49,342 bases of DNA from a virus (taxonomy: Duplodnaviria; Heunggongvirae; Uroviricota; Caudoviricetes): IMG/VR virus record IMGVR_UViG_3300025530_000411. One strand, written 5' to 3'. Position numbers and translations under genes: made by a program. This document shows positions 40,766 through 41,848 of the stretch, one piece after another (within the stretch, counting starts at the first letter, position 1; every line of letters starts with the position of its first letter). The notes under the pieces are model-generated. The model was not told the DNA's origin. It did not search any database and worked only from the letters and a program-made list of their open reading frames with translations.

Positions 40766-41848
40766 ATGCCGAACTTGGACGTGATATTTGATCTGTCTTT
40801 TGGTTCCTGTGGAAAAGGACTTATTGGCGGATACTTGGCGTTCCGCAACAACTACGACTTCGCTATCGAAAGCTACGGGACTCAAGCCGGACACACGGTA
40901 GTCTTCGAAGATGGTAGGAAGATCGTAGTACAGCAACTGCCACAGGCGCTCGTGAACGAAAACACCAAACTTCTTATCGGGGCGGGGGCAGTAATTGACC
41001 TCGACCAACTCGAAAAAGAAGTTAACGAATACCTCGGGGGAAAAGAGAAGGCGAAAGGTCGGCTGTACATTCACCCCCGTGCTTCGGTCATTCAGCCGCA
41101 ACACAAGGAATGGGAGAAACAGCACATCCGTTCCGGCAGCACGTTCAAAGGCGTCGGTGCGGCGACAGCATTCAAAGCTATGCGACATCCTGACCACGCA
41201 CTCATCCGCGATTTCCCCGAATGGCGGGACTTCCTCGCAGACACGGCGGAAATGGCGACCGACATGCTCCTTGAAGGCAAGACGGGCATTATGGAAATTG
41301 CCCAAGGGTTCGAACTCGGACTTAACCACGGTTATGAATACCCACATTGCACGAGTCGCGAATGTTCGCCGCAACAAGGACTGTCCGACAACGGTATCTC
41401 CATCCGACACGTACGCCACATCTACGGTGTGCTTCGCACATATCCGATTCGGATTTCGAACGAAATGGCTATCGAAGGTGGCGGATTTGCCTACTCCGGC
41501 AACGGCGGCAAAGAACTGACTTGGGAGGAAGTCGAAAGGCGTGCAGGTGCACCAATCGGTGCCTTCTCTTCCAAAGAAATTACCACGGTAACGAAAAAAC
41601 TCCGTCGGGTATTTGAACTCGACCTTGACCGCGTGGCCAGGGCAGTGAAGCTGACCGGGGTGGACAAGCTTGCCGTGAACTTCATACAATACATCAACTA
41701 CGAAGACGTCGGAAAAACCAAATATTCCGAACTTTCGCAAAAGTCCAAAAACTTCATTGCGGAAGTGGAACGCAAGATTGGCGTTCCGATCGTTCTGATC
41801 GGTACGGGACCGCGCAATGACCAGATCATTGACTTGGAACGGAACTAA
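40766..41848 (+). CDS. purZ: PurZ-type (2-aminodeoxyadenylosuccinate synthetase-like) paralogue of adenylosuccinate synthetase
   Basis: Short (360 aa) PurA fold. DLSFGSCGKGLIGGYLA has Ser14 where PurA has the catalytic Asp (GDEGKG). Also AGHT, AQGFEL, YPHCTSR, VLRTYPIRI (PurA K.Y.TRV), ELTWE, TTVTKKLRRVF and AVNFIQY (PurA TKLD/TMLD). Confidence 0.82.
   Translation: MPNLDVIFDLSFGSCGKGLIGGYLAFRNNYDFAIESYGTQAGHTVVFEDGRKIVVQQLPQALVNENTKLLIGAGAVIDLDQLEKEVNEYLGGKEKAKGRLYIHPRASVIQPQHKEWEKQHIRSGSTFKGVGAATAFKAMRHPDHALIRDFPEWRDFLADTAEMATDMLLEGKTGIMEIAQGFELGLNHGYEYPHCTSRECSPQQGLSDNGISIRHVRHIYGVLRTYPIRISNEMAIEGGGFAYSGNGGKELTWEEVERRAGAPIGAFSSKEITTVTKKLRRVFELDLDRVARAVKLTGVDKLAVNFIQYINYEDVGKTKYSELSQKSKNFIAEVERKIGVPIVLIGTGPRNDQIIDLERN

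Follow-up and report, generated by a model that had tools for sequence, protein, structure and literature searches.

A PurZ-clade gene linked to a DmtZ-DutZ fusion on a ~300 kb Firmicute-type, conjugative megaplasmid-like element

PurZ is the enzyme by which phages replace adenine with 2-aminoadenine (Z) in their DNA, and every 2-aminoadenine genome established by experiment comes from a small lytic phage whose host is a cyanobacterium, a proteobacterium or an actinobacterium. Here we describe a purZ gene in a 49,342-nucleotide stretch of DNA (hereafter the window; IMG/VR virus record IMGVR_UViG_3300025530_000411) that belongs to an element of ~300 kb. Judged by its sequence, this gene is a genuine member of the known PurZ clade, clearly so in spite of its divergence. 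It is under purifying selection and is linked to genes for a thymidylate kinase (Tmk), a nucleoside monophosphate (NMP) kinase and a DmtZ-DutZ fusion, on an element that also carries a conjugation gene set. We lean, by a little, towards the reading that a working PurZ and DmtZ-DutZ put Z in place of A in the element's own DNA, the element being a Firmicute-type conjugative megaplasmid-like replicon.

An earlier note on this DNA had proposed a PurZ-like enzyme in which Ser replaces the catalytic Asp of adenylosuccinate synthetase (PurA), and this was borne out by family matches, by placement in the PurZ clade and by Ser14 (codon TCC), which occupies the site of PurA Asp13. The protein matched Pfam PF00709 (Adenylsucc_synt; E 2e-38) and PHROG 1211, the PurZ family (E 1e-66). 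Sequences of solved structures matched it in the order phiVC8 PurZ (E 2e-44), P. horikoshii PurA (E 2e-40), S-2L PurZ (E 2e-35) and PurZ0 (E 2e-27). The motifs quoted in the note (GTQAGHT, RTYPIR, TTVTKKLRRV, NFIQY at residues 305-309, and the C-terminal segment with LIGTGP) were all found in the translated open reading frame (ORF). Against a relative with 93% identical PurZ, dN/dS of the gene was 0.035, and purZ is therefore under strong purifying selection.

We next aligned the protein and its close relatives with one representative per 50% cluster of the best 150 matches from a library of 1.8 billion proteins and with named references, which included the PurZ0 proteins of Archimedes, Wayne and Spocter and canonical PurA as the outgroup. 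Ser stands at the Asp13 position in 153 of the non-outgroup rows. R-x-x-P-I-R, TTVTKKxRRV and N-F are common to nearly all of these Ser-type relatives, so that the first two are hallmarks of the family and not oddities. Cys15 is likewise frequent among them, and some ten further cluster representatives also have Gln in place of Asn in xAGHT. The motifs that had been singled out as odd are thus present, but they are mostly family-wide and less odd than was claimed.

The note had further placed the protein on a branch of its own, with archaeal PurA/PurZ0 on one side and PurZ on the other, and had called for a phylogeny with all three; the trees contradict this placement. In a 161-row tree the protein nested in the clade of PurZ proteins with the N-F motif (SH-aLRT 100), and in a more careful 61-row tree it nested with phiVC8, S-2L and Acinetobacter PurZ (UFBoot/SH-aLRT 100/99). 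This N-F clade holds every characterised ATP-using PurZ and leaves PurZ0 outside in both trees, while the PurZ0 clade of Archimedes, Wayne and Spocter (support 100/100) excludes the window protein. The PurZ proteins of S-2L (PDB 7ODX), phiVC8 (6FM1) and the Acinetobacter phages are 32-35% identical to it and have in common with it, besides Ser at the Asp13 site, the N-F-x-Q/N pocket, the dGMP contacts, R-x-x-P-I-R and TTVTKKxRRV.

The crystal structure of S-2L PurZ names the residues that contact its ligands and their roles (PMC8342488), and in our alignment 18 of these 20 contacts are identical in the window protein. They comprise S14, G16 and G42-H43-T44; the dGMP pocket residues G124, S125, R140, C195, T196, R229, T273 and R280; and the adenine pocket N305, F306, Q308, G348 and P349, which corresponds to S-2L N305, F306, Q308, G335 and P336 (the matching numbers at 305-308 are coincidental). 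The two changed contacts are S-2L Y203, which is H194 at a position that varies in the family, and V241, which is I230 here and likewise in 27 of the 153 relatives; the Val is the dGMP pocket residue that clashes with a 2'-OH (PMC8342488). At the 305-308 site, the window protein reads N-F-I-Q, versus T-K-x-D in PurA and S/T-M-x-D in PurZ0. The predicted reaction is thus that of PurZ with ATP or dATP as donor, and since the dGMP and adenine-nucleotide contacts of S-2L PurZ are retained, the different substrate that the note thought possible is not indicated.

An AlphaFold model of the protein (pLDDT 95.4) superposed on PurA and PurZ structures with TM scores of 0.80-0.85. The best fold match was P. 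horikoshii PurA (5K7X; TM 0.85/0.91), followed by phiVC8 PurZ (6FM1; 0.81/0.85). The backbone is closest to the short archaeal PurA because the window protein retains a longer, PurA-like C-terminal segment that both phiVC8 and S-2L PurZ have lost. The archaeal-like C-terminus is therefore real by model and alignment, as had been noted, but it is an ancestral trait that is also found in a Bacillus phage homologue.

The genes that would complete a Z pathway lie past the window end. A contig that overlaps window positions 44940-49342 (L043; 99.86% identity over 4403 nt) runs on downstream, where it encodes Tmk, an adenylate kinase (ADK)-like kinase and a 332-aa fusion of an NDT-like domain with a dUTPase. 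This dmtZ-dutZ gene starts ~1.3 kb past the window end and 8.8 kb downstream of purZ, and this fusion occurs together with a PurZ identical to that of the window on one 303,462-bp contig. The order of genes is kept in relatives with 93% and 76% identical PurZ, in which the methylase is followed by thymidylate kinase, a 171-aa adenylate-kinase-like protein and a 331-333-aa fusion with an N-terminal NDT-like and a C-terminal dUTPase domain, and linkage of purZ to dmtZ-dutZ recurs in relatives with 93%, 85% and 76% identical PurZ. The fusion of the 93% relative (L002), which is 74% identical to the window element's copy, aligned with Wayne DmtZ-DutZ over 300 aa (E 4e-33), and the element's own fusion matched the Wayne locus with E 2.7e-32 (tblastn). 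The fusion keeps the catalytic Tyr/Asn/Glu triad of DmtZ as well as the Asp that specifies adenine.

In Arthrobacter phage Wayne, DmtZ-DutZ was shown in 2026 to hydrolyse dATP and dGTP, destroy dAMP and move deoxyribose phosphate to the Z base, and it is known from Z-DNA phages only (PMC12884076). The PurZ0 systems of Wayne and of the Gordonia phages Ghobes and Archimedes have the same fusion of NDT-like DmtZ and Dut-like DutZ with the triad kept (PMC12884076); their synthetases differ from ours, which has N-F-x-Q instead of S/T-M-x-D, is 28-30% identical to them and falls outside the PurZ0 clade. In a survey, dutZ and dmtZ were enriched with PurZ0, whereas PurZ phages mostly had DatZ with MazZ-2 or DUF550 (PMC12884076). 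A PurZ-type synthetase together with DmtZ-DutZ is therefore a new combination.

The closest named relative of the protein is encoded by vB_BpsS-140 (MH884512), a cultured siphophage whose host is an alkaliphilic Bacillus, with 40.5% identity and placement in the same sub-clade. This phage shares with the element a Firmicute host type and a trio of PurZ, adenylate-kinase-like and Dut-like proteins, which suggests a Firmicute version of the Z-cluster. It differs in being a tailed phage of 55 kb that has genes for virion and lysis proteins, and its Dut-like protein is without the NDT (DmtZ) domain. Papers on vB_BpsS-140 neither discuss the PurZ-clade gene nor give the DNA composition. The claim of a new host phylum was thus overstated, as vB_BpsS-140 already has a PurZ-clade gene, yet the searchable literature contains no demonstrated Firmicute Z genome.

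The element was recovered in two independent assemblies of 301,935 bp (ENA ERZ795070 NODE_12, L050; 185x coverage) and 303,462 bp. These two near-equal contigs suggest a complete replicon of ~300 kb that was abundant in the 185x sample, of which ~80 kb of contiguous sequence was read here. After dmtZ-dutZ come genes for YdjM, TcpC, TcpE, a VirB4-like (AAA_10) ATPase, a protein in the VirB6 position, an SLT/M23 hydrolase and a ParA-like protein. Further downstream are a 1066-aa T2SSE ATPase, two T2SSF proteins, an Mrr-like nuclease, a response regulator, an S24/S26 peptidase and a YfbR/OxsA-like hydrolase. The 1072-aa protein in the VirB6 position has no Pfam match in the window element, and only its counterpart in the 76% relative weakly matched TrbL_3. 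Together with the relaxase-like and coupling-like proteins of the window, the downstream genes make up, by their sequences, a Gram-positive conjugative gene set, and the element has the components of a conjugative element in a relaxase-like protein, a coupling-like ATPase, a VirB4-like protein, a VirB6-position protein and a cell-wall hydrolase.

Homologues of the coupling-like ATPase occur almost only in Bacillales phages and in Clostridium and Bacillus plasmids, beside TrbC/VirB2 genes, and the nearest homologue of the ribonucleotide reductase (RNR) is a Brevibacillus plasmid gene (tblastn against plasmids). A Firmicute host is therefore plausible. With these homologues and secretion genes of the Tcp/Tn916 type, the plasmid-like, ParM-bearing and Firmicute-affine element that the note had described was supported. 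Large Gram-positive conjugative plasmids (those with Tcp/pCW3-Tn916 secretion and the Bacillus Alp/ParM plasmids) share with it ParM-like partition, a relaxase-like protein, TcpC, TcpE, the VirB4-like ATPase, the VirB6-position membrane protein and the cell-wall hydrolase, and pXO16 (350 kb) is an analogue in size. In contrast to these plasmids, the element has its own PolA replisome, RNR and Z-pathway gene set, and its secretion proteins are only ~27% identical to theirs. It also differs from the carriers of purZ in PurZ phages, being of conjugative type and ~300 kb rather than a lytic phage of 40-45 kb.

From this gene content we infer enzyme activities, Z in DNA and a timing of expression as follows. 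With phosphate donated by ATP or dATP, PurZ would join aspartate to dGMP, and the product, N6-succino-2-amino-2'-deoxyadenylate (dSMP), would be turned into dZMP by the host's adenylosuccinate lyase (PurB). Phosphorylation to dZTP would follow, through nucleoside-diphosphate kinase together with either the adenylate-kinase-like NMP kinase of the element or the guanylate kinase of the host. DmtZ-DutZ would hydrolyse dATP and dGTP to monophosphates, thereby feeding dGMP to PurZ, and would also destroy dAMP. In at least one life stage, the PolA replisome of the element would copy the ~300 kb replicon with Z for adenine, and the C5-methylase would cover restriction sites made of G+C only, beyond the protection that Z affords. 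A Z-strand entering a recipient could then already be resistant at restriction sites containing A or T, with the multispecific C5-methylase covering the G+C-only sites; we regard this extension to conjugation as possible but doubtful.

Avoidance of 4-mers was scored over 79.7 kb (the window with L048/L051). GGCC (observed/expected 0.52, z -6.8) and CCGG (0.75, z -4.3) were the most avoided, and the mean z of palindromic 4-mers was -0.54 for those containing A/T, which are hardly avoided, versus -3.29 for those of G+C only. GGCC avoidance is ordinary in Bacillus phages too. These numbers therefore lend weak support to the methylase/Z restriction picture.

Several observations weigh against a Z-substituted replicon and are set out here with the alternatives on which they bear. 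The first concerns the enzyme itself. The NCBIfam PurZ model NF038379, which covers residues 5-296 only, gave 214.7 bits against a cut-off of 300, a low score that reflects divergence from proteobacterial and cyanophage seed sequences. The archaeal-type PurA model gave marginally more, 218.9 bits against a cut-off of 368, and PurA models all stayed far below their cut-offs, so that automated annotation would give the protein neither name. Taken with the fold match to P. horikoshii PurA and the PurA-like C-terminal segment, these scores might point to a short archaeal-type adenylosuccinate synthetase that uses IMP, Asp and GTP and raises the AMP supply of the element. The PurA hallmarks are absent from the protein, however: the catalytic Asp13 is replaced by Ser14, and the Lys and Asp of the GTP-specifying T-K-x-D motif by Phe and Gln in N-F-I-Q. 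With its distance from the PurA cut-off and its nested position in the PurZ clade as well, we consider such a synthetase highly improbable.

A second group of observations concerns the element. The remaining ~220 kb of the replicon is unseen and could hold the virion genes of a jumbo phage or phage-plasmid with a Z genome, in which PurZ and DmtZ-DutZ would act in lytic replication only and ParM and the secretion genes would represent a plasmid-prophage stage or a hybrid acquisition. When the Z-cluster was expressed in E. coli, it was toxic and Z entered the chromosome too (PMC8342488). A stably resident Z plasmid is hard to reconcile with this toxicity, and expression would therefore have to be confined, for example, and purely by conjecture, to transfer-competent donors; lytic-only expression would remove the problem. 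A phage would also fit the size of ~300 kb, the lytic phages that house all characterised PurZ systems, the coupling-like ATPase family, which is found in SPO1-like phages too, and the phage-like replication and recombination module (Sak4, PD-(D/E)XK exonuclease, DUF669, clamp loader, CCA-adding enzyme and a RuvC-like protein with nearly only viral relatives). However, no terminase, portal, capsid, tail or lysis gene was found in the ~80 kb, which instead holds the full Tcp/Tn916-type set, T2SSE/T2SSF pilus genes and the relaxase-like protein. A further, weak point is that the IMG/VR contigs scanned contained no close purZ relative, though JGI metagenomes hold family contigs of 116-146 kb. The gene content thus points to a plasmid rather than a phage lifestyle; a conjugative megaplasmid with a phage-derived replication module is more likely, and the phage alternative, while a serious one, is on our estimate unlikely.

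A third group concerns the pathway. We found no DatZ, MazZ or DUF550 near purZ, neither with Pfam at E up to 5, nor with PHROGs, nor with a protein atlas applied to the surrounding small ORFs (those without a match were 39573-39992, 40011-40358, 40322-40666, 41946-42440, 42553-43098, 43229-43705 and 43787-44254). The family A DNA polymerase (PolA) is not of the DpoZ type, scoring 172 with NF038380 (DpoZ_1; cut-off 500) and 104 with NF038381 (DpoZ_2; cut-off 350) versus 296 with the NCBIfam PolI model, and is 24-25% identical to the DpoZ of Wayne and phiVC8. DpoZ is not obligatory for a Z genome, as S-2L uses PrimPol (PMC8342488). A YfbR/OxsA-like HD phosphohydrolase (L050:19619-20305, - strand) lies ~29 kb downstream of purZ and matched Listeria Lin2634 (3MZO; E 8e-34). 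We did not count it as a DatZ, which belongs to the same superfamily, since similarity to the S-2L and phiVC8 proteins was marginal and confined to the surroundings of the HD motif; it could be a further nucleotide-pool enzyme.

Finally, the nearest sister clade of these PurZ-like genes (support 100/97; AGSCGKG ... NFAQY) is not from phages. One member (L040:10001-11086) lies on a 761,871 bp ENA contig of a spore former amid LigA, FolD, DprA, PGI, pyruvate kinase and CotJABC, and another (L042:10001-11533) encodes a 510-aa NUDIX-PurZ fusion in a cluster with NUDIX, radical-SAM, methyltransferase, histidine-phosphatase and NT5C genes. Because this clade lives in non-phage settings, PurZ-clade membership alone is no proof of a Z genome. 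A PurZ-like enzyme and a Dut/NDT fusion might instead reshape nucleotide pools without any Z replicon, either in defence or competition (by depleting dATP/dGTP or poisoning invaders with dZTP) or to make a 2-aminopurine metabolite. The cellular contexts of the sister clade, in which some members are fused to NUDIX or GNAT domains within nucleotide-modifying clusters, agree with this alternative, as do an intact copy retained in a rotifer genome and the Mrr-like and YfbR/OxsA-like genes of the element. We nonetheless rate it as quite improbable, for the gene sits amid a replisome, RNR, Tmk and an NMP kinase, the typical precursor-supply module for DNA synthesis, and its DmtZ-DutZ partner is the one reported from Z-DNA phages alone (PMC12884076). 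It is this linkage to DmtZ-DutZ, the kinases, the reductase and the replisome, rather than clade membership, that carries the case for Z here.

Several relatives of purZ are found in other settings. The sister-clade gene of the spore former is preceded by a small NUDIX ORF in an apparently chromosomal neighbourhood, GNAT-PurZ fusions were also found (P0018, P0052), and the NUDIX domain of the sister-clade fusions could be a stand-in for MazZ. GTDB species genomes and IMG/VR yielded relatives of only 32-34% identity, no close PurZ was present on the 72,556 plasmids searched, and GenBank phages and PLSDB plasmids contained no DNA near-identical to the window.

In two assemblies of the bdelloid rotifer Adineta ricciae, GCA_905250025.1 (L004:10001-11083) and GCA_905250095.1 (L005:5542-6624), we found an intact, intron-less PurZ-clade gene that is 74% identical to the window gene, keeps the Ser in GSSGKG and has a GC3 of 0.29 versus 0.59 in the window gene. 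It lies on a 456 kb contig between intron-bearing eukaryotic genes (JmjC, protein kinase, PDZD8-like). purZ is the sole gene that this locus shares with the element, the adjacent thymidylate kinase being unrelated, and the rotifer copy was apparently acquired long ago by horizontal transfer.

Many Rhizobium, Agrobacterium and Sinorhizobium plasmids (L034, which is Agrobacterium fabrum pAt1D132a, and H102-H115) and the chromosome of Microbacterium sp. EST19A (L006) carry short PurA-like genes of the Ser type in which the motif reads T-F-x-D. These genes form a basal group outside PurZ and PurZ0 and are annotated as adenylosuccinate synthetase; one plasmid copy is N-terminally extended. In both trees, a short Asp-type PurA-like gene (GDEGKG, T-F-x-D-W-W) stands inside the Ser-type radiation, represented by a Dehalococcoidales metagenome-assembled genome (L007) and IMG/VR UViG 3300017987_000015 (L010), which are separated by zero branch length. 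Either these genes reverted to Asp or the Ser state arose more than once.

The features of the window are collected in Table 1. Nearly all of its genes are on the + strand. With its own strong ribosome-binding site of Firmicute style, near-consensus promoter-like site and terminator-like hairpin, purZ looks like a monocistronic, self-contained transcription unit.

Table 1. Features of purZ and other genes in the window.
Feature	Position	Strand	Basis or remark
ParM/Alp-type actin-like partition protein	2253..3305	+	PF17989, PF21522, PHROG 691
VirD4/coupling-protein-like ATPase, SPO1 gp27.4 family	8892..11438	+	PHROG 5156 E 3.5e-187; function name from depositors' annotation of homologues
Replication-relaxation (relaxase/nicking initiator-like) protein	11802..12704	+	PF13814 E 1.9e-7, above cut-off; PHROG 9381 'replication initiation by nicking'
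Clamp loader	25857..27149	+	PHROGs; Pfam on syntenic relatives
PD-(D/E)XK exonuclease	28093..29271	+	PHROGs; Pfam on syntenic relatives
Sak4-like annealing ATPase	29308..30126	+	PHROGs; Pfam on syntenic relatives
SSB/DUF669-like protein	30205..30633	+	PHROGs; Pfam on syntenic relatives
Family A DNA polymerase with 3'-5' exonuclease domain	34069..36282	+	PHROG 17; best PDB match Klenow
Ribonucleotide reductase	36418..38952	+	PF02867 E 1.5e-102; best plasmid homologues annotated class II, B12-dependent
RuvC-like resolvase, relatives almost all in viral clusters	39085..39573	+	Atlas features 0.94-0.95; structure TM 0.68-0.77; PHROG 1981
Promoter-like TTGACT-18 nt-TAGAAT with TG ahead of -10, directly 5' of purZ	40696..40725	+	Consensus scan, 10/12; pattern match only
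Shine-Dalgarno GGAAGGAG, ATG 7 nt further	40751..40758	+	Read from sequence
purZ, PurZ-clade (N6-succino-2-amino-2'-deoxyadenylate synthase-like), 360 aa	40766..41848	+	Open frame, no stops
Codon TCC, Ser14 in F-G-S-C-G-K-G, site of PurA catalytic Asp13	40805..40807	+	Aligned with S-2L PurZ S23 and phiVC8 PurZ Ser
Codons of N305-F306-I307-Q308, predicted adenine-reading pocket	41678..41689	+	Alignment with S-2L PurZ
Terminator-like hairpin, 14-bp stem and T run, 3' of purZ	41873..41907	+	Pattern match only
C5-cytosine DNA methyltransferase, 850 aa, two methylase stretches	45105..47657	+	PF00145 E 1.8e-90; PHROG 116
367-aa gene, last of the window	48239..49342	+	Followed in the element by tmk, adk-like and dmtZ-dutZ, ~1.3-2.3 kb beyond the end of the window

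Further genes of the window encode Snf2-like and DinG/YoaA-like helicases, a CCA-adding enzyme and a MoxR-like ATPase with a DUF2201/VWA protein. The purZ-adjacent C5 methylase is unusually long and in this resembles the multispecific methylases of Bacillus phages; in the 76% relative (L014:11553-14222) an intein-like Hint/LAGLIDADG insert splits the methylase. A stretch of ~1.9 kb (43029-44948), located between purZ and the methylase, is absent from the 93% relative L002 and is perhaps a small accessory or variable insert. Each of its three small ORFs (43229-43705, 43787-44254 and 44460-44916) has promoter-like and terminator-like sites of its own, and none matches a known family. The preceding block 42650-43028 is 89% identical to L002 (BLAST), and only its + frame is open (ORF 42553-43098).

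The sole long ORF on the reverse strand (21310-23832; 840 aa) had no Pfam or NCBIfam match and a faint match to a 'primase' PHROG (E 4e-4). AT skew changes sign across it and the adjacent 24-26 kb stretch has the lowest GC (0.39), and its surroundings may be a strand-switch or origin-like region. Scans of the window for tRNA and Rfam families found nothing. An exact-match look-up of the 138-aa ORF at 47623-48039 gave no result, probably as its called start differs.

Three things have not been reported together in the searchable literature: an ATP-type PurZ, an adenine-clearing DmtZ-DutZ fusion of the kind so far described for PurZ0 phages alone, and a ~300 kb Firmicute-type element with a complete conjugation apparatus and a replisome. 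What makes this finding truly unusual is its plasmid-like Firmicute context, and the 185x-coverage sample would be a good source for chemistry on the element's DNA. If that DNA is not Z-substituted, then PurZ-clade enzymes would have a second role, to which the chromosomal and NUDIX-fused sister clade and the rotifer copy likewise point. If it is Z-substituted, base replacement would not be a purely viral invention, and the element would be a natural model of a cell in which a ZTGC replicon, long-lived or able to transfer, coexists with an ATGC chromosome, with bearing on restriction evasion, plasmid ecology and synthetic genetics. Should transfer of a Z-strand also prove true, the element would be the first Z-substituted replicon outside viruses and the first case in which a non-canonical base serves against restriction during conjugation.

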